Of a stretch of DNA of 64,000 nucleotides, positions 2,888 to 31,220 are shown piece by piece. Source of the stretch: Escherichia coli (GTDB lineage: Bacteria; Pseudomonadota; Gammaproteobacteria; Enterobacterales; Enterobacteriaceae); NCBI RefSeq assembly GCF_011045215.1, contig NZ_CP049201.1. The stretch is one strand, 5' to 3'. The position numbers were made by a program, and so were the translations under genes. The notes beneath the pieces are model-generated. The model made no database searches and was not told where the DNA came from. It was given only the letters and a program-made list of their open reading frames with translations. Every line of letters starts with the position of its first letter. The stretch's first letter is position 1.

Positions 2888-4367
2888 CACCATTCCGTCG
2901 AATACGCTGGTTCCGTTGTTTTATGCGGAAATGGATAACTCGGCGGCGAATACTGCACAGGACAGCGGAGCATCGCTGCTGATTGGTCATGCCAATAACG
3001 GTGCAGAGATTGTTGCCAACAGTCTGGTACTGATGCCGTCGGCAGACTATGCACGCCAGATTTGTGGTGCGGGAAGTCAGCTGGCGCGTATGGTCGAGGC
3101 TTATCGCCAGACCGACCCGTTTGGTGAGCTGTATGTGATTGCCGTTCCTGAATCCACAGGCGCGGCGGCAACGGTTACGCTGACGGTGACCGGGGCGGCA
3201 ACCGAAACCGGCACGGTGAATGTCTATGTGGGACGTACCCGCGTGCAGGCTCCGGTGACCAACGGCGATAACGTCACGACGATTGCCAGCAGTATCAAAG
3301 ATGCCATCAATGCCGTTCCGGCCCTGCCGTTTACGGCTTCATCTTCGGCAGGCGTGGTCACACTGACCGCGCGTCATAAGGGGCTTTGCGGGAATGAAAT
3401 TCCTGTCAGCCTCAATTACTACGGCTTTGGTGGGGGCGAAGTGCTGCCAGCGGGCGTACAGATTGCCGTGGCGACGGGTACCGCCGGAACGGGTGCTCCG
3501 GTTCTCACCGGCGCGGTGGCTGCAATGGCGGATGAGCCGTTTGATTATATCGGCCTGCCGTTCAACGACACGGCCTCCGTTAACACGCTGATGACCGAGA
3601 TGAACGATACCAGCGGTCGCTGGAGCTATGCGCGTCAGCTGTATGGTCATGTGTATACGGCAAAGATCGGCACGCTGTCAGAACTGGTGACCGCAGGTGA
3701 CCAGTTTAACCAGCAGCACATTACCCTGGCGGGGTACGAAAAAGAGACCCAGACGCCTGCCGACGAACTGGCGGCAAGCCGTACCGCCCGCGCAGCGGTG
3801 TTTATTCGCAACGATCCGGCACGTCCCACGCAGACCGGTGAGCTGGTGGGTATGCTGCCTGCGCCGAAGGGGAAACGGTTCACGATGACCGAACAACAGA
3901 CCCTGCTGTCTCATGGCGTGGCAACGGCGTATGTCGAAAGCGGGGTACTGCGCATTCAGCGTGATGTCACCACGTACAGGAAAAACGCTTACGGGGTTGC
4001 GGATAACAGCTACCTAGACAGTGAGACTCTGCATACCAGCGCGTATGTACTGCGCAAACTGAAATCCGTCATTACCAGTAAGTACGGGCGTCACAAGCTT
4101 GCCAGTGACGGTACCCGCTTTGGTCCCGGTCAGGCGATTGTCACCCCGGCGGTGATCAAAGGGGAACTGCTGGCAACCTACCGTCAGCTTGAGCGTGCGG
4201 GGATCGTGGAAAACTACGCACTGTTTAAGCAGTACCTAGTTGTGGAGCGTGATGCCAGCGATCCGAACCGCCTGAACACGCTGTTCCCGCCTGACTATGT
4301 TAACCAGTTGCGTGTCTTTGCCGTGGTTAACCAGTTCCGTCTTCAGTATTCAGAGGAGTCCGCATAA
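2871..4367 (+). CDS. phage contractile tail sheath protein
   Basis: 498 aa; size and sequence character typical of Mu/P2-type sheath proteins; followed by tube and chaperone genes. Confidence 0.9.
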   Translation: MTISFNTIPSNTLVPLFYAEMDNSAANTAQDSGASLLIGHANNGAEIVANSLVLMPSADYARQICGAGSQLARMVEAYRQTDPFGELYVIAVPESTGAAATVTLTVTGAATETGTVNVYVGRTRVQAPVTNGDNVTTIASSIKDAINAVPALPFTASSSAGVVTLTARHKGLCGNEIPVSLNYYGFGGGEVLPAGVQIAVATGTAGTGAPVLTGAVAAMADEPFDYIGLPFNDTASVNTLMTEMNDTSGRWSYARQLYGHVYTAKIGTLSELVTAGDQFNQQHITLAGYEKETQTPADELAASRTARAAVFIRNDPARPTQTGELVGMLPAPKGKRFTMTEQQTLLSHGVATAYVESGVLRIQRDVTTYRKNAYGVADNSYLDSETLHTSAYVLRKLKSVITSKYGRHKLASDGTRFGPGQAIVTPAVIKGELLATYRQLERAGIVENYALFKQYLVVERDASDPNRLNTLFPPDYVNQLRVFAVVNQFRLQYSEESA

Positions 4368-8436: not shown

Positions 8437-9512
8437 ACGACAATGTCACGCTACGGGTAAATGGCCGGGAGTGGAATGGCTGGACATCGGTGCGCATCGG
8501 TGCCGGTATTGAACGGCTGGCGCGGGATTTCAGTGTGGAGATCACCCGCCAGTGGCCGGGTGATGAGGGTATCACCACGCTTCAGCCGCGCATTAAAAAC
8601 GGTTCAAAAGTGGAGGTGCTGATTGGTGATGAGCTGGTGATCACCGGCTGGGTGGAGGCGACGCCCGTTCGTTACGATGCCCGTTCGGTCAGCACCGGTA
8701 TTGCCGGACGTAGTCTGACGGCTGACCTGATTGACTGTGCAGCCGAACCGACACAGTTTAACGGACGCTCGCTGGTGCAGATTGCGCAGGCGCTTGCTGC
8801 GCCTTTCGGCATTGAGGTGGTGAACAGCGGTGCGCCGTCGGGTGTTATTCCTGATGTTCAGCCTGATCACGGTGAAACGGTGATTGAGGTAATCAACAAA
8901 ATACTCGGTCAGCAGCAGGCACTGGCTTACGACGATCCGCACGGCAGGCTGGTGATTGGCGGTATTGGCTCAACGCGGGCACATACCGCGCTGGTACTTG
9001 GGGAAAACATCCTTTCCTGCGATACGGAGAAGAGTATCCGGGAGCGGTTTTCAGTTTACCAGGTGGCGGGGCAGCGTGCCGGAAACGACGATGATTTCGG
9101 TGAGGCCACCACCACCGCGCTGCGGGCCCGCACAGAGGACGCATTTATTGCCCGTTACCGTCCGATGTATATCAGGCAGACAGGGCAGGCCACGGGGGCT
9201 GGCTGTATTGCGCGTGCTGACTTTGAAGCCCGGCAACGGGCGGCGCGGACGGATGAAACCACCTATGTGGTGCAGGGCTGGCGACAGGGTAACGGTACGC
9301 TGTGGCAGCCCAACCAGCGGGTGATTGTCTTTGATCCGGTCTGTGGTTTTGACAATACCGAACTGCTTGTTTCGGAAGTCACGTTTACTCAGGACCAGAA
9401 CGGCACCCTGACGGAAATCCGTGTCGGCCCGCCTGATGCTTATCTGCCTGAACCCGATGCCCCCGGCGCGCAGAAAAAGAAAAAAGCCAGAGTACAGGAG
9501 GACCCGTTCTGA
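8433..9512 (+). CDS. baseplate hub / tail protein (Mu P/gp44-like, P2 gpD-like)
   Basis: 359 aa; overlapping-start gene chain within the baseplate module. Confidence 0.7.
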   Translation: MNDNVTLRVNGREWNGWTSVRIGAGIERLARDFSVEITRQWPGDEGITTLQPRIKNGSKVEVLIGDELVITGWVEATPVRYDARSVSTGIAGRSLTADLIDCAAEPTQFNGRSLVQIAQALAAPFGIEVVNSGAPSGVIPDVQPDHGETVIEVINKILGQQQALAYDDPHGRLVIGGIGSTRAHTALVLGENILSCDTEKSIRERFSVYQVAGQRAGNDDDFGEATTTALRARTEDAFIARYRPMYIRQTGQATGAGCIARADFEARQRAARTDETTYVVQGWRQGNGTLWQPNQRVIVFDPVCGFDNTELLVSEVTFTQDQNGTLTEIRVGPPDAYLPEPDAPGAQKKKKARVQEDPF

Positions 9513-17790: not shown

Positions 17791-18069
17791 CGATTCATCT
17801 GGGCCAATCCTCGCTCATAACAGGCATTCACTTCAGTCATGGCAGAAAGGTATGCATGCTGGAGAAGTCGTGAAAGAAAAGAAGACTGCTGCGCCGTTTG
17901 TCGTCACGTTTATCTTCATTGGCTATGCAAGTCGTAATACAAGGTGGGACAAAACTGAGACACATAAGGCCTCGCAATGGCTTGCAAGGCTTTACATGTT
18001 TTGATGTGGTGGGACGTGTGAGCGCAGTGTTGATGGGGTAATGCTTTGAATTAGAAGCGGATTCTTATA

Positions 18070-18115
18070 ATTCGTAATGCGAAGGTCGTAGGTTCGACTC
18101 CTATTATCGGCACCA
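18070..18115 (+). tRNA. partial tRNA-Thr (thrW) 3' fragment (pseudo-tRNA / att core)
   Basis: ATTCGTAATGCGAAGGTCGTAGGTTCGACTCCTATTATCGGCACCA equals the 3' 46 nt of thrW as recalled; the 5' half is replaced by unrelated sequence. Confidence 0.7.
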
Positions 18116-18280
18116 TTTCAACGTCTTTTCCCGTCTATTAAAATCCAAAAAACCCGCATATACTCTAGCTTTGAGCGCCCCCGATAGTGTTTTAACGTCT
18201 ATCAATATCTCCTAAAATCCACGTCTTTTGGGGGTATATTCGGGGGTATATGCTGTGTGGGCTACTGGAGATACCCCCAA

Positions 18281-19471
18281 ATGAAACTAAATGCCCGTCA
18301 GGTCGATACGGCCAAACCGAAAGAAAAACCCTATAAACTGGCCGATGGTGGTGGGCTTTATCTGCTTGTTAATCCCAATGGTTCCCGGTACTGGCGTTTA
18401 AAGTACCGGGTAGCCGGAAAAGAAAAGCTGTTGGCGCTGGGGGTATATCCCGATGTAACCCTGGCTGATGCCAGGGCGAAACGAGATGAGGCCAAAAGGG
18501 GTATGGCTGGGGGGATCGACCCGAACGAAGCGAAGCGGGAAGAAAAATTGAACCGCGAAGCGCAAATCAAAAACACCTTCGAAGAAATCGCCAGAGAGTG
18601 GCATACAGAACGGCAGAAGAAATGGTCTGAGGGGTACGCCTCGGACATTCTGGAAGCATTCAGTAAAGACATATTCCCTTGGATTGGAAAACGCCCCATC
18701 ACGGAAATAAAGCCCCTTGATTTGCTGAATACGCTTAAACGCATCGAGAATAGGGGAGCGACTGAAAAGGCCCGTAAGGTTCGCCAGTGGTGCGGGGAGG
18801 TCTGGAAGTATGCGATCGTTACCGCCCGCGCAGAATATAACCCCGCCCCTGATCTATCTGTGGCTATGGAAGGACACGAAGGGGAGCACTTCCCCCATCT
18901 GGAAGCCGAAGAGTTACCCGAATTTTTCCAGACGCTGGCGACGGCAAAAAGTAACGTTCAGGTTATTTTGGGGCTGCGTCTGCTTATTCTTGTGGGGTTA
19001 CGTCCGGTTGAATTACGCGCGGCCCCGTGGTCAGAGATTGATTTTGATAATGCCTTGTGGGAGATCCCCAAAGAGCGAATGAAGAAAAGACGTCCGCACG
19101 TTGTCCCGCTTTCTCGCCAGGCTATGGTTATTCTCGGGCAATTAAAAGAGTTGTCGGGCCGCAATCCTTTCATTTTTCCGGGCCGGAACGACCCGCGAAA
19201 GCCAATGAGTGAAGGAGCAATTAATCAGCTAATAAAGCGACTCGGGTATAAGGGCAAAGCTTGCGGGCATGGTTTCCGACATACCATGAGCACAATTTTG
19301 TATGAGAAAGGGTATAACACCGAATGGATCGAAACCCAGCTTGCACATGTTGATAAAAATACCATCCGTGGCACATATAATCATGCCCGCTATCTGGATG
19401 GACGCCGGGAAATGCTTCAATGGTATGCCGACTATATGGAATCGCTGGCGAGTGGCAGGGTAAAAGATTAG
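18281..19471 (+). CDS. P4-type tyrosine integrase
   Basis: MKLNARQVDTAKPKEKPYKLADGGGLYLLVNPNGSRYWRLKYR... is the canonical P4/CP4 integrase N-terminus; C-terminal HxxR...Y catalytic region present; lies 165 bp after the thrW fragment. Confidence 0.9.
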   Translation: MKLNARQVDTAKPKEKPYKLADGGGLYLLVNPNGSRYWRLKYRVAGKEKLLALGVYPDVTLADARAKRDEAKRGMAGGIDPNEAKREEKLNREAQIKNTFEEIAREWHTERQKKWSEGYASDILEAFSKDIFPWIGKRPITEIKPLDLLNTLKRIENRGATEKARKVRQWCGEVWKYAIVTARAEYNPAPDLSVAMEGHEGEHFPHLEAEELPEFFQTLATAKSNVQVILGLRLLILVGLRPVELRAAPWSEIDFDNALWEIPKERMKKRRPHVVPLSRQAMVILGQLKELSGRNPFIFPGRNDPRKPMSEGAINQLIKRLGYKGKACGHGFRHTMSTILYEKGYNTEWIETQLAHVDKNTIRGTYNHARYLDGRREMLQWYADYMESLASGRVKD

Positions 19472-19511
19472 AGAAGGTCTAAGACGGGAATACCGCTAAA
19501 TTAGATGTTAG

Positions 19512-19547
19512 GCGTGGACACTCAGCATCCACGCTTAAACTTTTTAT
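19512..19547 (+). terminator. rho-independent terminator of the integrase gene
   Basis: GCGTGGA-(9 nt)-TCCACGC hairpin followed by a T-rich tract (TTAAACTTTTTATT). Confidence 0.6.
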
Positions 19548-20041
19548 TATCATTTTCAATGAATTATGATTTTGGAAATTTTATAAAAAACACCAAGATT
19601 ACTAATCTATTGATTAATATGAAATATTTCTTTTTTTGATTATTAATTGTGCTCTTGATTGTTGTTTTTATGGTGTTAATTTATAAAAATCTTATTTATA
19701 GGAATTAACATTATATAGTTGGCACTTTTTGCTAAAATCTGTTTTTATTGTGTTTTATTTTTATTTCATTTTTGTTGTTGTTTGTTTGATTTTTAGTGTC
19801 TTTATATCTGGCTAATTGATTTCACTCAAACCATAAATCCTTTCAGAGGCTTCTAGAGTCTTCCTGAGGCTTAAATTGACTTAACTAAAAGTCAAGCCCC
19901 ACATCCCACATACATCTTTTTGACATGCACTTATGGCGTGAATAACAATGACTTCATCCAATCTACAGGCATCCTATAAAGTCAATGTCTGTATATAGAA
20001 AGATATTACATAACGTTTGAATGTTAATAGCGGGTGTGAAT

Positions 20042-20260
20042 ATGAGAAATGATGCAATGCAGCTTTTAAACCAGGGAAAAAGATTGATCCGCCTGCCTGA
20101 AGTTATGATGCTTACGGGGCGGTGTCGCGCCAGTATTTATAAAGATATCAATGCAAATGTCTTTCCAAAGCCGATTAAAACCGGCCCGCGTTCTGTCGCA
20201 TGGGTTGAGGGTGAGATCAGCGACTGGATCGACAACAAAATCAAAGAGCGCAAAGTGTAA
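20042..20260 (+). CDS. alpA: AlpA-family phage regulatory protein (excisionase-like)
   Basis: ...RLIRLPEVMMLTGRCRASIYKDINANVFPKPIKTGPRSVAWVEGEISDWI... matches the AlpA pattern; start is ambiguous (20042 or 20057). Confidence 0.75.
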   Translation: MRNDAMQLLNQGKRLIRLPEVMMLTGRCRASIYKDINANVFPKPIKTGPRSVAWVEGEISDWIDNKIKERKV

Positions 20261-20459
20261 ATCTGATTTTATTCAGAGATGAATATGATTTATTTGAATG
20301 CTAAGGATTTTGTGTATTCTTTTTGTTGTAAATACTCGTAGCATGGGGAGTTGGCAGTATTTATTCAGTATTAGGTTAAGTAGTGATAAAATACCAGGTA
20401 ATGCCGGTTTATGCAGTGTTTAATATATTTGTTGCTGGCGAAAATTTACGGAAAATTAA

Positions 20460-21332
20460 ATGAACATTACTGATATTATCAGCCATCGCGTATATCGTGA
20501 TGCGGATCTTGCTGTCATTAATAACACGGCATTTATTCAGCCTTATGACGGTTGTCACCGTGGGTTGTATGAAATGCGCGTTATTGAACTTTATCGCCTG
20601 AATAAAATGATGCACCTTACCCACGAATATAAATCTATTTCCGGGGAAAGCGTAGGCATTCCGGCGACTAAAGAGGAACTGTTTACACTGGTTAATAAAG
20701 GGCATGAACTTTGCCAGTCTGAACGGGAAAAGCTGGCGGCACTTGAAGCAGAATTGCAGCGTCTGCCAAGCCCGGCTGTAATTCCTGCGCCGCAGACGAT
20801 TAAAGAAGCACAGCAGGCCCGTAAATCACTAGAAGATGAAAGATACAGACTGCATCACGCAGCAATTAAAAATCAAGTCAAAGCACAGCAGGAAGAGTTA
20901 TCCATCAGACAAAACATTCTGGAATTGCTCGCGCCGGTTATTGATGTGTTGTTGGCCGTGGAAGATGTGGAACTGCTCGATCTGCGCCGTTCCCTGCCTA
21001 AGTCATCCCTCGATGCTAAGGCATTCAAAAAGGCGATTTCTGAAATTGAGTGTGCTGACCTTGCCTGGCAGAAAATGGATAAACTGGAGATTGCCCTTAA
21101 CAAGGTGGTGAACAACTGCACATATCGCCCGGAAGGAAGCATTAATCCCCGTTTTGTTAACCCTCTTAATGAAGATAAGCGGGAACGCGCCGAAATATCA
21201 CGCGATTATTACAGCTCTGAAATGGCCTTTATTCATACGGTGATGAGTGCAGATGAATATTTAAATTATATGTTGCCGATCCGTCACCAGCAGCGCGCGC
21301 AACGACTCACATTAGAAAGAAATATCAACTAA
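20460..21332 (+). CDS. hypothetical coiled-coil protein (possible capsid scaffold / size-determination factor)
   Basis: 290 aa with a long Gln/Glu/Leu-rich heptad-like central region; immediately upstream of, and on the same strand as, the capsid-like gene. Confidence 0.45.
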   Translation: MNITDIISHRVYRDADLAVINNTAFIQPYDGCHRGLYEMRVIELYRLNKMMHLTHEYKSISGESVGIPATKEELFTLVNKGHELCQSEREKLAALEAELQRLPSPAVIPAPQTIKEAQQARKSLEDERYRLHHAAIKNQVKAQQEELSIRQNILELLAPVIDVLLAVEDVELLDLRRSLPKSSLDAKAFKKAISEIECADLAWQKMDKLEIALNKVVNNCTYRPEGSINPRFVNPLNEDKRERAEISRDYYSSEMAFIHTVMSADEYLNYMLPIRHQQRAQRLTLERNIN

Positions 21333-21341
21333 GGAAGAATT

Positions 21342-22349
21342 ATGTCTTATGTAACACCAGATTATTTAACGCAGTATCACGAAAACCTGATTAAGTCTTT
21401 TAATATTAAATATAAAAACGAAGATACGGGGTATTTCACCATATCACAGCCGGAAAAAGCATCTCCGGATGCATGGGGATGTTCCACGCTTGATGTTAAA
21501 GGCTCGTCCTGGCTGATTGATAATATTTCATTACTGGACATTATCGGTGCGGATGGCACGACGATCACCATCGGTGATGGTTCCCTTTATACAGGCCGTG
21601 CAAAGGAAGGTCGCTTTCATAAGAAACTAAAAACCAACGGAACACCTTTTTTATTATCAGAAACGGATTCCTGCGCCTCATTGACTTATGAAGAAATGGC
21701 GGTAATGGCAAACGCGAAAAATTTCAGTAATGAAATGATCATTTTTTTCAAGAAGGCCGTGGTGCGGGATATGCTCCGTATTGGATTTAACGGCAAGATG
21801 ATTGCCGAAAATACCAACCCGGAACAATATAAAAACGGCGAAGATATCAATATTGGCTGGCACTCGCTGGCAAAAACATTCAATAACGGTTCACAAATTA
21901 TTTCTGATGCTTTCGCACTGGGGAAAGGCGGTGATTTTGCCGATGTTCACGATCTGGCTGATTGCCTCATCACGTCAAAAATCCCCGAAGGTCAGCGCGA
22001 AGATCCGGGCCTTGTGGTGATGGTTGGCGCGCAACTTGCCGCCCGCGAACGACTGAAACTGTTCAACATGGCCGATCAACCACTGACGCTGACGGCGGGG
22101 GATATGCTGACAAGCAGTGTCGCCGGTCGCTTTGCTTTTATCCCGCCGTTTATGCCGGGTAAGCGCCTGGCTGTTACGACGCTGAAAAATTTGCAGATCC
22201 TGACGCTGAAACACAGCCAACGCTACCGCGCGGAGGATATCCCGCAACGAGGTGTTTATGAGCATGGCTATTTACGTGAGGAAGGTTACGCGCTGGGGGA
22301 TGGCTATCTTTACGCGGCCAGCGATGAGAACGCCGTAACGCTGGTTTAA
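21342..22349 (+). CDS. P2 GpN-family major capsid protein homologue
   Basis: Segment LGKGGDFADVHDLADCLITSKIPEGQREDPGLVVMVGAQLAA parallels P2 gpN VGKGGDYASLDALVMDATNNLIEPWYQEDPDLVVIVGRQLLA (recalled from memory); FNGKM... also parallels gpN FNGVK... Confidence 0.6.
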   Translation: MSYVTPDYLTQYHENLIKSFNIKYKNEDTGYFTISQPEKASPDAWGCSTLDVKGSSWLIDNISLLDIIGADGTTITIGDGSLYTGRAKEGRFHKKLKTNGTPFLLSETDSCASLTYEEMAVMANAKNFSNEMIIFFKKAVVRDMLRIGFNGKMIAENTNPEQYKNGEDINIGWHSLAKTFNNGSQIISDAFALGKGGDFADVHDLADCLITSKIPEGQREDPGLVVMVGAQLAARERLKLFNMADQPLTLTAGDMLTSSVAGRFAFIPPFMPGKRLAVTTLKNLQILTLKHSQRYRAEDIPQRGVYEHGYLREEGYALGDGYLYAASDENAVTLV

Positions 22350-22561
22350 GTATCGAGTACAGCCAGCTTTGACAGTGATGGCCAGATAAAAGAAAACCCT
22401 CTCACCGGAACGAACAAGAAACGATAAGAGGGTTTATCAGGAAGATGATTCTACGTGATGAATTATACCGAGAAACAACCGATGCTTACCAGCAAAAACG
22501 CGTCACTGTTTGTGCAGCTGGCACCGTCCGATCTGACGGTGTTTTCCGGAATGGTAAGGAG

Positions 22562-22753
22562 CTATTCCTTTGCCTTTTTGCGCTGTTCTGCTTTCAGCTT
22601 GCGCCCGCAGGCATCCAGCACCCAAGCGGAAAAACTTGAACCCGGATTATCGACTTTTTCGCGTTCTACGCAGGCATCAATTTCTGCGATCATTTCATGC
22701 GGGAAGCGTATTCCCTTGTATGTTGTTTTGCTGTTTATGTGGTTTTTAGTCAT
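22562..22753 (-). CDS. putative small DNA-binding regulator (ribbon-helix-helix-like), about 63 aa
   Basis: MTKNHINSKTTYKGIRFPHEMIAEIDACVEREKV... has RHH-like strand-helix character; divergent from the downstream operon with operators between; start codon uncertain (M15/M24/M33 of the track ORF). Confidence 0.45.
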   Translation of the reverse strand: MTKNHINSKTTYKGIRFPHEMIAEIDACVEREKVDNPGSSFSAWVLDACGRKLKAEQRKKAKE

Positions 22754-22769
22754 GCTGGAAACTCTTAAG

Positions 22770-22870
22770 TGTTTAAACATCAGTAAAGATACAGTAAAGC
22801 CGGACATAACAAAACTGTTTAAACAAAATCTGTTGACTTGTTTAAACACTCAGCATAATGTGTTTAAACA
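22770..22870. promoter_or_regulatory. operator array: four copies of the palindrome TGTTTAAACA within divergent promoters
   Basis: Exact copies at 22770-22779, 22816-22825, 22839-22848 and 22861-22870; TTGACT (22833-22838) and CATAAT (22854-22859) hexamers interleave with the right-hand pair. Confidence 0.6.
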
Positions 22871-22960
22871 GTTTGCTACGTTGCAAACTGAAAAAACGAA
22901 GCCCGGCAGTGTTGACGCACTAACCGGGCCTCTGACCAACACGTTATTAGGAGTAACGCT

Positions 22961-23164
22961 ATGGCTAGCCATCAGTGTAACCAAACTCGCCCTAAAAATC
23001 GCCTATTTCTCTTTCTCGCGGTATCACGGGCCGACATGCAGGACAAACCACACCGCGAACAAATCACCGCGTACAGCGAACAGGAAGCCCGTTCCATGCT
23101 GGCCGGTCGCTTTATCCTCTGCTTTGCTGGCCGTCTGCCGGTTCAGGAGGTGCACCATGTTTAA
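22961..23164 (+). CDS. hypothetical protein (67 aa), first gene of the coupled operon
   Basis: AGGAG 7-8 nt upstream of the ATG; stop overlaps the next start (ATGTTTAA). Confidence 0.4.
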   Translation: MASHQCNQTRPKNRLFLFLAVSRADMQDKPHREQITAYSEQEARSMLAGRFILCFAGRLPVQEVHHV

Positions 23165-23405
23165 CCCACTGGACAACCGCAAAGCGGCGGCGCTTAACCC
23201 GTTCCACGATGACTGTTACGATCCGCCAGCCTTTATTAAACCGGGTTCAAAAGTAGTGGTTGAAATTGATTCCCGGGAAATGGAGGTCGCTATTCTAGCC
23301 GCTTATGACTACGGACTGGACGCGCTGAACGACGATGGCCGGGAAGAGCTTAACCGCTTAATTGCTGACCTGAAAGACAAGATAACGGAGGCGCGGTATG
23401 CATAA
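23158..23405 (+). CDS. hypothetical protein (82 aa)
   Basis: Strong SD (caGGAGGtg) before the ATG at 23158; acidic protein; the rest of track ORF 22455-23405 is rejected. Confidence 0.55.
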
Positions 23406-23823
23406 TCTGCTTAATTCACCGTTGCCAGTGTCTATGGATCTCTTTCAGGCTGGCGAGATGTGCGGGCATTTTGTCGCGCGGTTAACGGATGAAAGTTGTG
23501 TTGACGAGACTGAACGCGTCGCACTTTGCGGACGTCTGGCTTTTGCCCTGCGTTCTCTTTCATCTCTTTGTGATACAGACTATCCATCGCATATCCAGGC
23601 GCAATTAACCGCGACTGCTATTCCTGCTCCCTGCGTACCTGATGAGTGGATCGACGCGACGATCATGACGGGCTATTGCACCGCCTTAAATGATGCGCTG
23701 CTTAGTCGCTCCCTTCGTATGGACGTTGAAACACAATTACGCTGGCTTTTGCATGACATGATTAATTTACTTGTCAGATATCTGAAACAGCCTTGTATTA
23801 AGGCGGGAGTAGATCATGTCTGA
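23398..23823 (+). CDS. hypothetical protein (141 aa)
   Basis: Start overlaps the previous stop by 8 nt; Cys-containing; no known motif. Confidence 0.55.
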   Translation: MHNLLNSPLPVSMDLFQAGEMCGHFVARLTDESCVDETERVALCGRLAFALRSLSSLCDTDYPSHIQAQLTATAIPAPCVPDEWIDATIMTGYCTALNDALLSRSLRMDVETQLRWLLHDMINLLVRYLKQPCIKAGVDHV

Positions 23824-24214
23824 AATTATGCTCACACCGTTTCACGTTGACCGCCATTTTTACGATCTGGTTTACGGTGCTTCATTTTTTGCGGATGCAT
23901 TACCTGCAATGAATGATATCAAGCAGCAGCGGCTTTATTGTCGATTATTGCAATTAAATCTGGTTGTTTTATTTGAAAAACGGTCGCGGGATATTCCCCC
24001 AATTCAGTCGAGTAAAATAAAAATCGCTGATGAGGTTATATTTCTTAATGTCGATAATATTTATCATGCGCTTTCCCTGACTGCCGGGCTGATAAGTCAG
24101 GATATCAGTAAGGGGATGGAAAAAGAACTGGCTGAATATATCAGGGATATTATTAGTATTATTTTTAATGAAATGCGAATGCAGATGGTTGATTATGATC
24201 CATATGAAATGTGA
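23816..24214 (+). CDS. hypothetical protein (132 aa), AT-rich gene
   Basis: Start overlaps the previous stop by 8 nt; composition shifts to AT-rich. Confidence 0.5.
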   Translation: MSEIMLTPFHVDRHFYDLVYGASFFADALPAMNDIKQQRLYCRLLQLNLVVLFEKRSRDIPPIQSSKIKIADEVIFLNVDNIYHALSLTAGLISQDISKGMEKELAEYIRDIISIIFNEMRMQMVDYDPYEM

Positions 24215-24310
24215 GACGAATAAAACAATAATCGATTTATAAGAACTGAAAAATATTTAATTATAACCGTATTTTAACGGGGGATAATTACGCCCCTGTA
24301 AGGAAAATAT

Positions 24311-24580
24311 ATGTCTGATTTGAATACCATTGCTGTTAATAGTGCTGAAAAATATCTTAGCCTTGAGTGCTTCCATAAACTCAACCGCGCAAGGAATGTT
24401 TCATTCCAGATGCATTTACAGATCCGTCAGTGTGAGATAAACGGCCTGCCACTTTTATGGATTCCAGATATTTTCAGCTATATCAGCGAAGACATATCCG
24501 CCGTTCTGGAAGAAGCCAAAGTACTTGGCCTTTGCGATAAGTTCACAGGCGAAGCCCGGATCGGTCAGGTCAGTCTTTAA
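24311..24580 (+). CDS. hypothetical protein (89 aa)
   Basis: Same strand, between the coupled operon and the primase gene. Confidence 0.45.
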   Translation: MSDLNTIAVNSAEKYLSLECFHKLNRARNVSFQMHLQIRQCEINGLPLLWIPDIFSYISEDISAVLEEAKVLGLCDKFTGEARIGQVSL

Positions 24581-24643
24581 TTTTTTGTATTCCGCGCCGC
24601 CCGCTGCGGCGCATTGTCTTACCCATTAATAAAGGTCATACCG

Positions 24644-27376
24644 ATGCAAGGTAAAAAAGTTTCACAGACAGCAGGACGCGCGGCGGGCCAGTGGGAAAAT
24701 ATTCTTGAACACCTGGGGATTACTGTTCCTGCGGGTGGTCTTCATGGCCCCTGCCCGATCTGCGGCGGTAAAGATCGTTTTCGCTTTGATAATAAAAAAG
24801 GGCGTGGAACCTGGTTCTGCAACCAGTGCGGCCACGGTGACGGGCTGGATCTGGTCAAACTGGCGCTTTCGCTGGACACCGGGCCAGCCGCTGATCGAGT
24901 TGCTGAATTACTTCCGGCCCTTCCTCCGCCTGCGGTCATGCAGCCTGCCAGAAAAGAAGCCAGTGACGAAGGTCGCCCACATGACTACTGGCAACGCCTC
25001 TTTGCCCGTACTCAGCCGGGGGAAAGCCCTTACCTTACGGCGCGGGGGCTGACAGGTTTTGAACTGCCGCTGACCGTTCAGGAGATGAAAACCGCTGGCG
25101 GTGTTTTTCCGGCTGGTTCGCTTTTATTACCGATCACGGACACCGAAGGACGGATGACCGGTGCACAGCTTATCGGCCCGGACAAGGTAAAAGGCTTATG
25201 TGCTGGCACCAGGAAAAAAGGGCGTTTTATCTCTGTCGGGCCGTTCCCGGAGAAAATGCCCGCGCGGATCATTATCTCGGAAGGCTTTGCCACTGCGTTA
25301 AGCGCATCCCTGCTTTCAGAGGGCTGGAGTATTGCGGCGCTGGATAAAGGCAACCTGAAAGACGTTGCGGAGCAAATCCGCCAGAAATGGCCGGACGTGC
25401 AGATCGTTATTGCCGGTGATAATGACTTTTCTGACGGTAAACCCAATCAGGGGAAAGAGTCTGCGATCAAAGCTGCACTGGCCGTTAAGGGATGGATGAC
25501 CATTCCTCCCGGACGGATCAAAGTTGACTGGGATGATTACCGCCGTGAATTTGGCCTCCAGCGCGCCCGTGACGCATTCGCGGAAGAACTGCTTAACCCG
25601 GCAGACACCGAAACGCGTTTACCGCATGGTTTCCGCCTGACGAAGGATTATCTTTGGTTTGATCGCCCGCTCAGTGACGGTAGCGAAAGCGGCCAGACTC
25701 GCCAGGTGAAGATATGTAGCCCGCTCAAAGTGACGGCCATCACCAGCGACGGCGAAGGCGGTAAATTCGGGCGTCTGCTTGAGTGGGAAGACTCCAGCGG
25801 ATTACGGCATGAATGGGCGATGCCAATGACAGTGCTTGCCGGAAGCGGTCAGGAGCTGCGGGAGGTTCTGCTTGATAACGGAATGCACTTTATCAGCGTG
25901 AACGGCGCGGCGCGTAGCTATCTGATGGAATACATTTCTAACTGTCGCCCGGTTCGCCGCGTCACCTGCGTTGAAAAAACAGGCTGGTTTAGCGGTGCGT
26001 ATGTTCTCCAGGATGAGGTGATCGGCAGCGATGCCGGATCGGTCATCCTCCAGTCTGCTATGTCGTCTAAAAATGACTTCCGGGTGAGCGGAACGGTGGC
26101 GGAATGGGCGCAACACGTCGGGCGCTATTGTGCCGGAAATTCCCGCCTGGTGTTCTGCGTCAGTCTGGCGCTGGCCGCGCCGTTACTGAATATTATTGGT
26201 GTTGGCGGCGGCGGTTATCACCTTAAGGGCGAATCCACGGACGGCAAGACAACCACAATGAAGGTAGCGGCGTCTGTCTGCGGCGGGCCTGATTTCTGGA
26301 AAACGTGGCGGGCAACCGGAAACGCGCTGGAAGGTATTGCGCTACGCCGTAATGATGCCGCCCTGATGCTGGATGAAATCAGCGAAGTTGACGGCAGAGA
26401 GGCTAGCCGGATCGCCTATATGCTGGGGAACGGGCAGGGCAAAGCAAGGGGGCGCGTTGATGGCAGCGTCCGCGATCCGGTGACCTGGACATTGCTTTAC
26501 CTGTCCACCGGGGAAATCTCTATTGCGGAACATGCCGCCGAAGCCGGAGAAAAGCGAACCGGCGCGGGTGTCGGTGTGCGTATGGTGCAAATCCCCAGCG
26601 ATACCGGAAAACATGGCGCTTTCGAAAATCTCCACGGCATGGAAGGCGGTAAAGCGTTTGCGGAATACCTTGAACAGACCTGTAAACAATATTACGGCGC
26701 GCCGTTCCGCGAATGGTTGCGCTGGCTGGCGGCAAATCTGACGGAAACCGCGAACCGGGCGCGGGCAATGAAAAAAGAGTATGAACGGACATTATTACCC
26801 GAAGATTCCGGCAAGCAGGTTGGGCGCATTGTGGATCGCTTTGCACTGTTGGCCGTTGCGGGGGAACTGGCGAGTGAAGCGGGGATCACAGGCTGGCAAC
26901 CAGGAGAAGCGTATAACGCTGCAAGAAGCTGTCTGGCGGCATGGCTTAACGATCGTGGACATGCGGCCAACCAGGAAGAAGCCGACGCGCTGGAGAAGGT
27001 GCGGCGCTTTATTACGGCCAATCAGTACACACGCTTTGCTGACTGGTATGACGAGAAAAACCGCCCGTCAAATATGGTTGGCTTTCGCCGGGTGGAGAAA
27101 GGCGGGAACGGTATTGGCATGAGCAAAAAGGAGAACAGCGGCGATACTGTTAAAGACGGGGACGCCACTAAAGAGCCGGAAACCACATTTTATATCCTGC
27201 CCAGCGGATGGAAGGAAATTTGCGGGACGTCGGACAGCGTTAAAACGGCGAGACTATGCGACGAGGCTGGATGGCTTGTAAAGGATGAAGATCGCCAGCG
27301 CCTACAACGTACAGTAAGACTACCGGAAATTGGCTTAAAGAAAGTGTATGTGTTCAGCGGCGAAGTGATCGGATAA
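24644..27376 (+). CDS. P4 alpha-type DNA primase/helicase (zinc-binding, Toprim and P-loop helicase domains)
   Basis: CPICGGKDRFRF...WFCNQCGHGDG zinc motif; Toprim-like IISEGFATALSA...IAGDNDF; Walker-type region further downstream; true start ATG 24644 (the track ORF begins at a TTG). Confidence 0.9.
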   Translation: MQGKKVSQTAGRAAGQWENILEHLGITVPAGGLHGPCPICGGKDRFRFDNKKGRGTWFCNQCGHGDGLDLVKLALSLDTGPAADRVAELLPALPPPAVMQPARKEASDEGRPHDYWQRLFARTQPGESPYLTARGLTGFELPLTVQEMKTAGGVFPAGSLLLPITDTEGRMTGAQLIGPDKVKGLCAGTRKKGRFISVGPFPEKMPARIIISEGFATALSASLLSEGWSIAALDKGNLKDVAEQIRQKWPDVQIVIAGDNDFSDGKPNQGKESAIKAALAVKGWMTIPPGRIKVDWDDYRREFGLQRARDAFAEELLNPADTETRLPHGFRLTKDYLWFDRPLSDGSESGQTRQVKICSPLKVTAITSDGEGGKFGRLLEWEDSSGLRHEWAMPMTVLAGSGQELREVLLDNGMHFISVNGAARSYLMEYISNCRPVRRVTCVEKTGWFSGAYVLQDEVIGSDAGSVILQSAMSSKNDFRVSGTVAEWAQHVGRYCAGNSRLVFCVSLALAAPLLNIIGVGGGGYHLKGESTDGKTTTMKVAASVCGGPDFWKTWRATGNALEGIALRRNDAALMLDEISEVDGREASRIAYMLGNGQGKARGRVDGSVRDPVTWTLLYLSTGEISIAEHAAEAGEKRTGAGVGVRMVQIPSDTGKHGAFENLHGMEGGKAFAEYLEQTCKQYYGAPFREWLRWLAANLTETANRARAMKKEYERTLLPEDSGKQVGRIVDRFALLAVAGELASEAGITGWQPGEAYNAARSCLAAWLNDRGHAANQEEADALEKVRRFITANQYTRFADWYDEKNRPSNMVGFRRVEKGGNGIGMSKKENSGDTVKDGDATKEPETTFYILPSGWKEICGTSDSVKTARLCDEAGWLVKDEDRQRLQRTVRLPEIGLKKVYVFSGEVIG

Positions 27377-27419
27377 GACCTGCTGACACCGCTATAACTA
27401 ACGGTGTTGGCCAGCTTCC

Positions 27420-27700
27420 GGCCCTGGAAACATAGCCAGCCAGGAAGAAGTGATCGCACGTATCATATTTTTTAGTGGAAACAGTGGGAACATAGGGAAC
27501 AGACTTGATTTATAAAGGTTTTATTTGTTCCCAATTACTGTTCCCATATGGTAACAGGTGGTAATGTATTTTAAATCATATGGTTATGTTGATATGCAAA
27601 GCGTTGTTCCCAGTTGTAAAAGAGAGATGGGAACAGGAAAAAGGTATAAATATCAACACTGTTACCATTGTTCCCACTGTTTCCACCATTTTTGACAATA
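27420..27700. repeat. iteron cluster (GGGAACA / TGTTCCC heptamers), putative replication origin or cis replication region
   Basis: At least 7 exact copies in both orientations plus variants (GGAAACA, TGTTACC, TGTTTCC) within about 280 bp directly after the primase gene; resembles P4 ori/crr TGTTCACC iterons. Confidence 0.55.
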
Positions 27701-27724
27701 ACAATATTTAATTTCGGGGAAAAT

Positions 27725-27741
27725 GCTTTTCCCTGGCTGGC
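27725..27741. repeat. 17-bp direct repeat, left copy (GCTTTTCCCTGGCTGGC)
   Basis: Exact copy of 30005-30021; lies 20 bp upstream of the P2-like integrase start. Confidence 0.5.
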
Positions 27742-27760
27742 TAACATCAAAGGTAAAGAA

Positions 27761-28726
27761 ATGAGCATTAAGAAACGTCCTGATGGAAAATGGCTGGTAG
27801 ATATGCGGCCCGCAGGTCGTAAAGGAAAACGTATTCGCAGGGTTTTTAACAGGAAATCGGAGGCCCTGGCATTTGAGATGTATTACCTGGTCCGTTCTCA
27901 ATCGCCGGAATGGGCAACGAACTTCACAGACCGCAGATTATTAAGCGATTTGCGTAAAACATGGTGGGACCTGTTTGGACACGCCAGAAATAACGCAGAA
28001 ACTGAAAAGCGCCAGCTTGATAAAACCATCCGGCAGATGGGAGATCCACCAGTTAACCGGCTTACAATCCGCTTCATTCTGGAATTCAGAGCAGGCCGTG
28101 TTTCAGGGAAATTAAAGGCATCCACGATAAATCGCGATATGTACCGGTTATCAGGCATGTTTACCGAATTAATTAAAGCAGGTGAGTGTAAAAATAATCC
28201 GTTCCGTAGTCTTGAACCGTTAAAGGAAGAACCTTCCGCAGTAACGTTTCTGACCCACGAAGAAATTAGCATGTTACTGGAAAAACTGGAGGGAGATTCG
28301 CGTAAGCTGGCGTTACTGTGTCTTAATACTGGGGCGCGTTTCAGTGAAGCCGCGAATCTAACGGCTGAAATGGTTAACAACCGTCGTGTAACGTTTATTA
28401 AGACAAAGAACGGGAAGCAGCGGACAATACCCATTTCATCTGAACTCGAAAAGGAAATAAAAACAAAAAATTCAGGTCAACTTTTCACGGTGGATTATAA
28501 ATGGTTTTCCCGCAGGTTGAAGGCAATCAAACCGGATTTACCGGATGGACAGGCAACGCATGTATTACGACATACTTTCGCCAGTCATTTCATTATGAAT
28601 GGGGGAAATATTGTTGTATTAAAAGAGATTCTTGGACATGCCAATATTCAGCAAACTATGATTTATGCACACTTTGCGCCTGAATTTCTGGCGCAGGCTG
28701 TAACATTGAATCCATTTAGTAAGTAA
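27761..28726 (+). CDS. P2-like tyrosine integrase
   Basis: MSIKKRPDGKWLVDMRPAGRKGKRIRRVFNRKSEALAFE... parallels P2 Int MAIKKLDDGRYEVDIRPTGRNGKRIRRKFDKKSEAVAFE (from memory); C-terminal HxLRHTFASHF...Y region present. Confidence 0.85.
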   Translation: MSIKKRPDGKWLVDMRPAGRKGKRIRRVFNRKSEALAFEMYYLVRSQSPEWATNFTDRRLLSDLRKTWWDLFGHARNNAETEKRQLDKTIRQMGDPPVNRLTIRFILEFRAGRVSGKLKASTINRDMYRLSGMFTELIKAGECKNNPFRSLEPLKEEPSAVTFLTHEEISMLLEKLEGDSRKLALLCLNTGARFSEAANLTAEMVNNRRVTFIKTKNGKQRTIPISSELEKEIKTKNSGQLFTVDYKWFSRRLKAIKPDLPDGQATHVLRHTFASHFIMNGGNIVVLKEILGHANIQQTMIYAHFAPEFLAQAVTLNPFSK

Positions 28727-28754
28727 CTGCGGATTTTCTTTTGAATGTACAAAA

Positions 28755-29012
28755 CTAACGTTGAAGTAATTCTTTCATGACCGTTTTTTGTTCCGGCGTC
28801 ATCATGTCAATCATTGTTTTTACTGCTTTATCCCCAGTCAGAGCGCTGGGGCTTAGCGTATGGGAGAACGTCATATTCATAACGAAGGTATGCCCACATT
28901 CAACATTATTACAGGCACAATACATATCAGACAGGTGGGGATGCTTGCGCACTGTCTTTTTTGTTGTTGAATTACTTCCACACTCAGGACAAACAATTTT
29001 ATGGCTGCGCAT
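28755..29012 (-). CDS. Ogr/Delta-family zinc-finger transcriptional activator
   Basis: CPECGSNSTTKKTVRKHPHLSDMYCACNNVECGHTF: a CxxC...CxxxxC zinc finger typical of P2 Ogr / P4 Delta; convergent with the integrase, 28 bp apart. Confidence 0.8.
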   Translation of the reverse strand: MRSHKIVCPECGSNSTTKKTVRKHPHLSDMYCACNNVECGHTFVMNMTFSHTLSPSALTGDKAVKTMIDMMTPEQKTVMKELLQR

Positions 29013-29430
29013 AATAATCACCACTCGTAAAAGGCGCATTATTATACCACTATTTGCATTAAACAAAAAAAAGAAATTGATATAAATTATCAATAATATC
29101 ATCGTGTTATGTCATTCCATTCTTTCTTTGCTTTTAACTTAGTGTCACGCAATTTGATTTTTTTTGTTTTAATTTTCATATGGTTACGTTATTTTGATTA
29201 AAGATTGAATTTTACGATGACTGTAATTATTGAAATCCTTTTCAACTGATTGCATTTTTTTCAGTCTCAAATTTCATGTAAAACCCCGTTTAACGCCTGT
29301 TCTGGCGCTTCTTTCCTGCAATTTTCCAAACTGAAAAAATTCTCACTACGTAAACACCGTGGGCGTGCGGGTGAGCGCGGTTTTGGTCCCGCTGGCGTTT
29401 GCGTCGTAACAAGTCAGAAACATACAACCA

Positions 29431-29452
29431 CATGTACAACTAGCTGTACATA
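29431..29452. promoter_or_regulatory. putative YefM-type operator (paired TGTACA hexamers)
   Basis: caTGTACAactagcTGTACAta lies 45 bp upstream of the antitoxin start. Confidence 0.45.
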
Positions 29453-29495
29453 TGCAATACTTACGACGTAATAACTTGGCGGACGGAAAAACACT

Positions 29496-29741
29496 ATGCA
29501 ACACGTAAACTATACCGATGCTCGACAGCATTTAGCTGACCTGATGCAGCAGGCTAATGATGATCGTGCGCCAATCCTGGTTACGCGTAAGGGTGCTAAA
29601 AGCGTAGTAATGATCGATGCGGAAGAGTTCGCATCGATTCAGGAAACGTTACACCTGTTCAGTAACCCGGCGAACGCCGCACACATTGAAGCCAGCCTTG
29701 CATCGCTCGAACGCGGCGATTATGAGGAACTGGACATTTAA
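29496..29741 (+). CDS. type II antitoxin, Phd/YefM family
   Basis: 81 aa; ...RAPILVTRKGAKSVVMIDAEEFASIQETLHLFSNPANAAHI... matches the YefM pattern; 1-nt overlap with the toxin gene. Confidence 0.85.
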   Translation: MQHVNYTDARQHLADLMQQANDDRAPILVTRKGAKSVVMIDAEEFASIQETLHLFSNPANAAHIEASLASLERGDYEELDI

Positions 29742-30001
29742 TGAAAGTCAGGATATCCCCGCAGGCAAAAGGCGATCTTCAGTACTGGGCTGAGAATGAC
29801 CCAAAGACGTATAACAAGGTAATGGAGCTAATCAAATCGGCTAAGGAAAGCCCCTTCAAGGGGATAGGGAAGCCGGAGGCGCTAAAGCATCGTAAGCCGC
29901 TTTGGTCACGTCGAATCACGAAAGAACATCGCCTGGTGTATTACGTTGAGCAAGGCGATCTGTACATTGTTGCGTGTCGCTATCACTACACCACGATTTA
30001 A
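29741..30001 (+). CDS. type II toxin, YoeB/Txe family mRNA interferase
   Basis: 86 aa; ...GIGKPEALKHRKPLWSRRITKEHRLVYYVEQGDLYIVACRYHY is the conserved YoeB C-terminus. Confidence 0.85.
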   Translation: MKVRISPQAKGDLQYWAENDPKTYNKVMELIKSAKESPFKGIGKPEALKHRKPLWSRRITKEHRLVYYVEQGDLYIVACRYHYTTI

Positions 30002-30004
30002 ACA

Positions 30005-30021
30005 GCTTTTCCCTGGCTGGC
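30005..30021. repeat. 17-bp direct repeat, right copy (GCTTTTCCCTGGCTGGC)
   Basis: Exact copy of 27725-27741; begins 4 bp after the yoeB-like stop. Confidence 0.5.
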
Positions 30022-30320
30022 GGGTTTACCTTAACTTTGCCAGCACTGTTTAAACGCCCGCCGCTCTCTCCCAAATACAGTATAAAAAGCAATCAATTAT
30101 TGTGGACGTAAAAGCGCATGGGGGTACAATTGGGGGTACGTTGGTTATCCATTATGTAATAAATTCATAATAAACATGGTGTTATATTGCATGTTTAACT
30201 CTTATTATCTACCCCATATTCAAATACACCACGTTTCCTCCTGTGCCGTATTTATGCCATTGTAACCCTGGCAATTAATCAAAATACTGTTCTGACATCA
30301 GGCAATGCAGGTGCAGACAT

Positions 30321-31220
30321 TTAAGCCAATTGCTGCCGCCATTCCTTAACGTGGTCAATCAGAGCGCGGAGCTTTGGTGCAATATTGCGACGCTGTGGGA
30401 AATACAGATAGAAGCCCGGAAATTGTGGAAGAAAGTCATCAAGCAGAGATACAAGCTTACCGCTTTCAATATATGGCCTGAAAGTTTCCTGAGTGGCAAT
30501 TGTTATTCCTCCGCCGGCAAGAGCCAGCCTCAACATCAGACGCAGATCATTAGTCGTAATCTGTGGTTCAATCGCAAGGTCGAAAGCTCTCCCGTTTTCT
30601 TCAAATGGCCAGCGATAAGGCGCAACATCCGGGGATTGACGCCAGCCGATACACTTATGATTCACAAGTTCACGCGGATGAACAGGTGTGCTGTTGGCTG
30701 CGAGATAGGAGGGAGAGGCAACGACCATTTCACGCTGACTGCCGGTAAGGGGCACAGCAATCATGTCTTTTTCAATGACCTCTCCGAGCCTTACGCCAGC
30801 ATCGTAACCTGCGGCCACGATATCGAATTCCTCATCCGTGACAACAATATCAAGCGTAACGGCTGGATTGGCTGCTGCAAACGAAGCGATTAGCGGACCT
30901 GAAAGAAATTCTTCAGCTATTGACGTCACTGCGATTCTGAGAAGTCCACGTGGTACATGATCAGAAACCATCTCTTCGAACGCTGTCTCAATACCGGATA
31001 AAGGTAATGACAGCGATTTATGCAGCCGTTCTCCTGCTTCTGTCAAATTAACTGAGCGCGTGGTCCGCATTACAAGCATTGTCCCGAATGCATCTTCAAG
31101 GCGTCTTATTCCCTGACTGACCGCTGAACGGGTAACGCCCAGCCGTGCGGCGGCTTTACTGAAATTACTCTCTTCTGCTACCGCGATAAAAATGGGTAAA
31201 AGATTAAGATCGATTTTCAT
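30321..31220 (-). CDS. LysR-family transcriptional regulator
   Basis: 299 aa; N-terminal HTH (...FSKAAARLGVTRSAVSQGIRRLE...) and LysR substrate-binding region; divergent from the SDR gene. Confidence 0.85.
   Translation of the reverse strand: MKIDLNLLPIFIAVAEESNFSKAAARLGVTRSAVSQGIRRLEDAFGTMLVMRTTRSVNLTEAGERLHKSLSLPLSGIETAFEEMVSDHVPRGLLRIAVTSIAEEFLSGPLIASFAAANPAVTLDIVVTDEEFDIVAAGYDAGVRLGEVIEKDMIAVPLTGSQREMVVASPSYLAANSTPVHPRELVNHKCIGWRQSPDVAPYRWPFEENGRAFDLAIEPQITTNDLRLMLRLALAGGGITIATQETFRPYIESGKLVSLLDDFLPQFPGFYLYFPQRRNIAPKLRALIDHVKEWRQQLA

Follow-up and report, generated by a model that had tools for sequence, protein, structure and literature searches.

A YlcI/YnfO-family ribbon-helix-helix protein as a candidate repressor of the early promoter of a P4-like phage satellite in Escherichia coli

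A satellite island of Escherichia coli, contained in a 64-kb stretch of DNA that was analysed as a whole (the window), carries four exact copies of the palindrome TGTTTAAACA next to a gene for a 63-aa ribbon-helix-helix (RHH) protein of the YlcI/YnfO family (DUF3950). Comparison with related loci suggests, with a probability of roughly 0.7, that this protein is an autoregulated repressor of the satellite early/replication promoter. Phage satellites of Gram-negative bacteria were not known to possess a repressor, and the protein probably fills this gap. A switch composed of an RHH repressor and its operators is of a known kind, and the comparison supports a role for an uncharacterised family that would be new.

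The island spans about 12 kb (roughly 18229-30138) and is a P4-like/PICI-like phage satellite, the backbone of which is present in 3 of 5426 complete E. coli genomes. Its left part contains the integrase gene (18257-19471), and a gene for AlpA (20021-20260, + strand) lies upstream of the controlled operon in the same orientation and is separated from it by the RHH gene, which is encoded on the opposite strand. The operon (22961-27376, +) was delineated from the open reading frames, the annotation of an E. coli relative, PHROGs, and Pfam matches in relatives; it starts with an icd-like gene (22961-23164, +), which is followed by three small ORFs, an epsilon-like ‘derepression’ gene (24311-24580, +) and a gene for a DUF927 primase (24614-27376, +). 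The right part of the island contains a second recombinase, Ogr/Delta and YefM/YoeB. A blastn search against phages gave as best hit a Klebsiella satellite-like record, vB_KppS-Ant, and no match to P4. For comparison, about 35 homologue loci from many Enterobacterales were assembled from a scan of representative genomes (13 loci), exact-protein look-ups (14), three E. coli relatives, three viral contigs and the satellite EcCICFT073. In all loci examined the regulator gene diverges from an operon with a primase or replicase gene further along, and this module is kept although the downstream replication protein varies by locus (DUF927 primase, D5_N/DUF5906 or a protein with a DnaG-type zinc ribbon).

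The divergent promoter region and the leader of the operon

The four exact copies of TGTTTAAACA occupy positions 22770-22779 (O1), 22816-22825 (O2), 22839-22848 (O3) and 22861-22870 (O4), between the leftward 63-aa gene (22562-22753) and the rightward gene starting at 22961. Their successive spacings of 46, 23 and 22 bp, which the initial annotation had reported and an exact-match search confirmed, place the whole set inside 101 bp, and the 64-kb window has no further exact copy. Allowing up to one mismatch raises the count in the window to seven (mean 2.4 and maximum 6 in 100 shuffles), the three inexact ones being scattered at 4222, 30047 and 33715. The near-copy that had been described as a fifth site at 30046-30055 is one of these three; it reads TGTTTAAACG, actually lies at 30047-30056, and was rejected as part of the system because one-mismatch copies are expected by chance at such a frequency (2.4).

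For the rightward promoter, the -35 hexamer TTGACT (22833-22838, +) has counterparts in almost every related locus, where TTGA(C/T/A)N is followed by the repeat at offset 0. The proposed -10, TAATGT (22856-22861, +), is weak and leaves a 17-bp spacer; it is placed from its positional counterparts, TAATCT/CATACT in the TGTGCGCACA loci, and an alternative -10, CATAAT (22854-22859, +), would leave a spacer of 15 bp. The leftward promoter has no recognisable -35, and its proposed -10, TATCTT (22786-22791, − strand), corresponds to a conserved TG-TAT(A/T/C)(G/T)T block at that place in the relatives. O1 starts 6 nt downstream of this hexamer, at about +1, and next come a Shine-Dalgarno-like AAGAG (22762-22766, −), read from the sequence and matched by a purine-rich block at its position in all relatives, and, 8 nt further, the ATG of the regulator gene. 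A consensus promoter scan of 22300-23100 called no sigma-70-like site at its thresholds, so that the promoters proposed on both strands are placed by conservation only.

The layout of the intergenic region recurs across the loci. TTGA(C/T)N is followed by a 10-12-bp dyad at offset 0 and by a second copy at +22 to +26, and in nearly all loci, but not in L026/L027, a third dyad is found on the opposite side, at a distance of about 47 bp (or 69 bp). In the window the first of these is O3, which occupies the first 10 bp of the promoter spacer, and the second is O4, which lies over the -10/+1 of the rightward promoter; both positions are present in all loci. The third is equivalent to O1, the proposed autoregulation site at about +1 to +10 of the leftward promoter, and adjoins the conserved TG-TATNNT -10 block just upstream of the ribosome-binding site of the regulator gene in nearly all relatives examined, again with the exception of L026/L027. 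O2, 7 bp upstream of the rightward -35, is an additional copy found only in the loci in which residue 12 of the regulator is tyrosine (the Tyr12 or TGTTTAAACA group), and has an offset of -23/-24 in the window, L001, L024 and L026/L027. In the related loci the repeats are perfect dyads at fixed offsets from the promoter hexamers. The palindromes had previously been said to interleave with promoter hexamers, which is borne out at TTGACT (22833-22838) and CATAAT/TAATGT (22854-22861), and the proposal of a switch at divergent promoters fits the conserved repeat positions relative to the -35 and both -10 regions.

The palindrome alone is not diagnostic of this arrangement, since low-GC phages use TGTTTAAACA without the RHH gene. 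In a scan of viral contigs for paired copies, 3 of 32 loci were enterobacterial satellites with a Tyr12-type RHH gene, and the majority of the remaining loci (about 20) were low-GC phages in which the palindrome lies at a different promoter and this gene is absent. These phage contigs (L037-L039, L043-L047, L055, L056 and L059-L064, the IMG/VR contigs within L037-L047 and L055-L064 having about 35% GC) carry TGTTTAAACA pairs with 24-bp spacing that flank a TTGACA / TATAAT promoter, and a motif search found no YlcI/YnfO-type gene in them. It looks as though a different repressor has adopted this operator sequence independently.

For the satellite regulator, it is proposed that one dimer would bind each 10-bp palindrome through its paired N-terminal strands, with residues 12, 14 and 16 as the predicted base contacts, and since neighbouring sites are separated by 22-23 bp or by double this distance, bound dimers would share one face of the DNA. 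Dimers on O3 in the spacer and O4 over the -10/+1, helped by O2, would block RNA polymerase at the rightward promoter, and the icd-like / epsilon-like / primase operon would stay silent in the integrated satellite. By binding at O1, where the leftward transcript starts, the regulator would limit its own synthesis. We infer both the binding and the sign of the regulation from sequence comparison. As for derepression, our best guess, which is speculative, is that AlpA-activated upstream transcription would run antisense through the regulator gene into the operon and override the repressor; a helper-phage anti-repressor would be an equally possible route. In P4, the upstream late promoter overrides immunity.

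The rightward transcript would begin with a structured leader (22869-22958, +; fold z = -4.55) that contains three hairpins, at 22869-22890, 22898-22932 and, beside the ribosome-binding site, 22942-22958. Across 22 loci, compensatory changes in 7 of 13 pairs preserve hairpins 2 and 3. The stem of hairpin 2 is nearly invariant and its loop of 5-7 nt varies, reading UUGACG in the window versus the reverse complement CGUCAA in L017/L010. The leader matches no Rfam family: searches gave no hit, including P4 CI, P1 C4 and IsrK, at E <= 1 in 18000-31000, and none to C4 or isrK at E <= 10 in 22780-23060 when lax filters were applied; the sole matches were to microRNA models and were rejected as spurious, being caused by the palindromes. 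The leader is possibly a new immunity or attenuator RNA, and by analogy with P4 it could carry the real immunity function, adding a further level of control or even providing the principal one.

It is conceivable, though rather unlikely, that the RHH protein binds the palindromes as a fine-tuner or dual regulator and not as a lysogeny-type repressor, and that the integrated state is held by the leader RNA together with the absence of AlpA. Such a protein could provide CopG-like copy-number or feedback control after induction, or could act like Mnt, repressing one promoter and activating its own. The conserved structured leader after the promoter would suit this role, as would the location of O2 between the two promoters, from where an activating contact is possible, and the lack of a site at the regulator’s own promoter in L026/L027. 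Furthermore, overproduction of AlpA alone induces EcCICFT073 and starts its replication, and helper phages turn on alpA (PMC6092414), so that the regulator, if it is a repressor, would not be the sole gatekeeper and its repression can be overridden. By contrast, the sites in the spacer and over the -10/+1 are invariant in all loci, which is the classical geometry of repression, and the leader matches no known immunity RNA family; both points favour the autoregulated repressor.

The regulator and the exchange of its sites between satellites

The regulator gene (22562-22753, −) runs from an ATG at 22753 to a stop at 22562. A 95-aa version starting from a GTG at 22849 (P0001) is given in the ORF list and at NCBI (Salmonella annotation), but its 32 extra N-terminal residues would be read across the operators and are absent from the homologues, all of which begin at M1 of the 63-aa form. 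The gene is real and under purifying selection: in the cross-genus comparison non-synonymous differences amount to 12-24%, while 51-88% of synonymous sites differ (dN/dS 0.05-0.22). The protein scores 49.4 bits against the NCBIfam model for YlcI/YnfO (NF041551), above the curated cutoff of 30, and matches Pfam DUF3950 (PF13132, E = 3.5e-5) and phrog_949, a family without known function; its closest protein match is from Salmonella, and the E. coli copy is labelled YlcI/YnfO in RefSeq. A blastn search with the RHH gene across E. coli genomes finds the identical copy only, the remaining E. coli cassettes being too diverged at the DNA level to be detected in this way.

The RHH character that had been ascribed to the leftward protein agrees with these family matches and with its predicted structure. 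AlphaFold models the monomer, with moderate confidence (pLDDT 72), as a strand (residues 16-18) followed by two helices (19-33 and 41-62), a predicted strand-helix-helix unit of about 45 residues that is typical of the RHH superfamily and matches RHH proteins only; a model of the dimer, made from two copies joined by a linker, is of low confidence (pLDDT 49). Sequence profiles show no similarity to recognised RHH families, Pfam giving DUF3950 only, and a profile search against PDB sequences found no relative below E = 0.7. The hhalign alignment to Arc is not significant (4.5% probability) and was used for the register only; it places residues 12, 14 and 16 of the regulator, which in the window form the pattern Tyr-x-Gly-x-Arg, on Q9, N11 and R13 of Arc. 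These are the base-contacting residues of Arc.

The sequence of the repeat differs by locus and tracks the strand residues that immediately precede the invariant I-R-F-P, among them the predicted DNA contacts 12 and 14. Y-K-G is found with TGTTTAAACA in the window, in E. coli L001, Klebsiella L024 and Dickeya L026/L027 and in the viral contigs L034, L051 and L054, and with the near variant TGTGTAAACA/TGTATAAACA, i.e. TGT(G/A)TAAACA, in Serratia L010. K-K-(N/H/Y/G) goes with TGTGCGCACA (L005, L006, L009, L017, L018, L023 and L030), T-K-G with GTGCAYATACAC, Q-K-K with GTGCACCCCCAC, T-K-K with GTGCGGCCACAC, K-K-A with GTGTGCGACCAC and L-K-N with GTGTGTAGACA. In the strand R16 is conserved, and in the sites the outer GT...AC. 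Together with the tracking of the operator sequence by residues 12 and 14, this gives indirect support for the binding mode of the RHH superfamily, in which obligate dimers insert paired N-terminal strands into the major groove. Neighbouring elements that are inherited together may co-vary without touching, so such co-variation is no proof of direct contact on its own; still, the earlier guess that the palindromes are the operators of the small protein gains support from the comparison, since the repeats change with the RHH strand residues and are swapped together with the gene.

This exchange is apparent from satellites in which regulator and backbone have different histories. L017, L018 and L028 resemble the window in the capsid-like protein (91-95% identity) and the Icd-like protein (85-88%), and L017 and L028 also in the primase (91-92%; no match in L018), yet all three have other strand residues and other dyads. 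Conversely, the replicases of L024, L026, L034, L051 and L054 are unrelated or only 36-44% identical to that of the window, yet these loci carry the dyad of the window. The overall similarity of the regulator is not what the sites follow, as the regulator of L054 is 61% identical to that of the window and has the same dyad, versus 71% identity and another dyad for L017. The clearest case is E. coli JNEC-KY203 (L065), in which int, alpA, orf290, capsid, orf82, epsilon, yefM and yoeB are 100% identical to the island in the window, orf141 and orf132 99%, the primase 98%, Ogr/Delta 96% and the Icd-like protein 88%, while the regulator has no significant similarity to that of the window (E = 1.2) and the dyads are of the TGTATTTCAC type. 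In comparison with E. coli L031/L032, nucleotide identity is 90-100% on either side of the segment from about 22566 to 22880 and <=50% within it. The low-identity segment spans the regulator gene and the sites together, which indicates that both were exchanged as one unit, a cassette at 22566-22880. Matched regulator-operator cassettes swapped in this way would give the satellites different, immunity-like types of specificity.

The repeats thus follow the regulator and not the backbone, and none of the island's other DNA-binding proteins varies along with them. It is very improbable that the palindromes are sites for another protein (iterons of the primase or an initiator, or sites for AlpA, Ogr/Delta, an integrase or a host factor), with the small ORF as a mere neighbour. 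The repeats do lie just upstream of the replication operon, and the P4 alpha protein binds short repeated sites in ori and crr (annotation of X51522). The cassette swap, however, rules out binding by AlpA, Ogr/Delta, the integrases or the primase, given that the integrase and AlpA of L065 are identical to those of the window and its Ogr/Delta and primase nearly so, yet its repeats differ; the perfect dyads with fixed offsets from the promoter hexamers, with which the RHH gene alone changes, likewise speak for the regulator. Iterons of a replication origin were rejected specifically, because the repeats do not follow the initiator: nearly identical primases go with different repeats, and unrelated replicases with identical ones.

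The transcript of the regulator gene is likely monocistronic and ended by a terminator-like 14-bp stem followed by a U tract (22396-22436, −; from the fold), and 22350-22561 contains no non-overlapping ORF of >=40 aa on the minus strand downstream of the gene. The least probable reading, that of a ParG/omega-like partition protein or a type II antitoxin with the repeats as centromere or autoregulation site, was rejected, since neither the ORFs nor the annotated genes in the island and in its E. coli relatives include a ParA-type ATPase, the regulator is followed on its strand by the hairpin instead of an adjacent toxin gene, YefM/YoeB of the island is a separate and complete toxin-antitoxin module, and in every locus the repeats fall on the promoter of the divergent operon.

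Relation to known repressors and satellites

By sequence, the regulator is a member of the YlcI/YnfO/DUF3950 family and not of the Mnt/Arc, CopG/omega or Stl families. YlcI and YnfO of E. coli K-12, which are encoded in the DLP12 and Qin prophages and belong to the same family by the curated HMM, have no known function. A literature search on YlcI/YnfO function found no functional study, and in the literature covered (journals outside subscription) neither DUF3950/YlcI/YnfO nor an RHH protein was linked with satellites.

In logic, the nearest counterparts of the proposed switch are the immI region of phage P22 and the CopG/omega proteins. P22 immI encodes the RHH repressors Mnt and Arc, which act at operators on back-to-back promoters, and its operon ends in an anti-repressor. 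The satellite regulator is likewise small, has its putative operators on divergent promoters and is transcribed away from an operon which, comparable to the anti-repressor-type function at the end of the P22 operon, includes the epsilon-like ‘derepression’ gene; moreover, the weak hhalign comparison brings its strand into the same register as that of Arc. CopG (pMV158) and omega (inc18) repress promoters of replication or maintenance genes in plasmids via repeated short sites, and their fold matches the one predicted for the regulator. They differ in arrangement, since CopG, the gene of which shares a transcript with repB, recognises a single 13-bp element, and omega binds adjacent 7-bp heptads, whereas the satellite has isolated dyads two helical turns apart and its regulator gene is divergent and monocistronic.

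In role, the closest counterparts are Stl/Rpr, the master repressors of the Gram-positive phage-inducible chromosomal islands (SaPIs), which are also divergent from the excision/replication operon of the satellite and are expected to silence it until a helper acts (PMC6092414). The regulator shares the divergent gene position of a PICI master repressor but not its helix-turn-helix, CI-like domain, the predicted fold being RHH; Stl is a larger helix-turn-helix protein that is inactivated by binding a helper-phage protein, as opposed to the 63-aa RHH protein here. For Gram-negative islands, induction has been reported to proceed via the activator AlpA (PMC6092414). P4 (PLE, CI RNA) and P1 immI (c4 RNA-icd-ant) resemble the island in element type and in the order of promoter, structured leader, icd-like gene, epsilon and primase, and P4 also has an AlpA/Vis-like gene upstream in the same orientation. 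However, P4 has no RHH gene beside PLE, its immunity factor is an RNA and its leader is dissimilar, whereas the island has a candidate protein/operator pair on the promoter.

The model satellite EcCICFT073 (L067; E. coli CFT073, NC_004431.1) has the same divergent pair of YlcI/YnfO and Icd-like genes (474-1053, i.e. 1380473-1381052 of the record), with TGGGCCACAC directly after TTGACG and again 23 bp downstream. The locus tags of the regulator (C_RS30120) and of the Icd-like gene (C_RS30125) are out of series between C_RS06940 and C_RS06960, from which we infer that both were added at re-annotation and were absent from the gene set of 2018, so that they were easy to overlook. Tentatively, and with clearly less confidence than we place in the repressor of this one island, the YlcI/YnfO (DUF3950) proteins may be the missing master repressors of Gram-negative satellites in general, both PICIs, including EcCICFT073, and P4-like elements. 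Each would act on its own operators as part of an exchangeable cassette, the cassettes would define hetero-immune groups through a two-residue code in the RHH strand, and induction by helpers would occur by override, either through AlpA-driven antisense transcription or through an anti-repressor.

SaPIs are understood through their master repressor Stl, and the module provides a concrete, testable repressor candidate for Gram-negative satellites that is present in a laboratory model, EcCICFT073. If the repressor reading is true, it would assign a function to a DUF that is common in enterobacterial prophages and satellites, would provide a natural set of orthogonal small repressor/operator pairs with at least eight specificities seen and an apparent recognition code, and would account for the mosaic “immunity-type” exchange between otherwise identical satellites.

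Further features of the island

Between alpA and the regulator gene, the region 20460-22349 (+) encodes a 290-aa protein with no Pfam or PHROG match and, following it, a 335-aa homologue of the P2-family major capsid protein (phrog_70, E = 3.7e-72; PF05125 in relatives). No sid or psu gene is found in the island. For a P4-like element, supplying a gpN-like capsid protein of its own in place of a size determinant of the Sid type looks unusual. The second tyrosine recombinase (352 aa; 27668-28726, +) follows the primase gene and precedes that for Ogr/Delta. The occupant of this slot seems to vary, since L066 has a 98% identical gene there, and L001 and L065 hold a different gene with 55% identity, extending in L065 over half of its length. 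The YefM/YoeB pair (29496-30001, +) at the right end of the island is complete and 100% identical in the E. coli relatives.

ARAGORN predicted no tRNA across the window, and a tRNA-like 3' fragment (...GGTTCGACTCCTATTATCGGCACCA) is present to the left of the integrase gene (18055-18118). The E. coli relatives adjoin tRNA-Thr, and imperfect direct repeats, TGGGGGTATATTCGGGGGTA and TGGGGGTACAATTGGGGGTA, flank the island at 18229-18248 and 30119-30138. In the window, a spurious long ORF (22455-23405, +) runs across the divergent region. The vB_KppS-Ant record (L015, LR881103.1), a 16.5-kb ‘induced prophage’ with its own capsid, portal and terminase genes, has 77% identity to the RHH gene and the leader at 9001-9400, and the single 975-bp ‘hypothetical protein’ annotated there on the other strand across the region is probably a mis-call.
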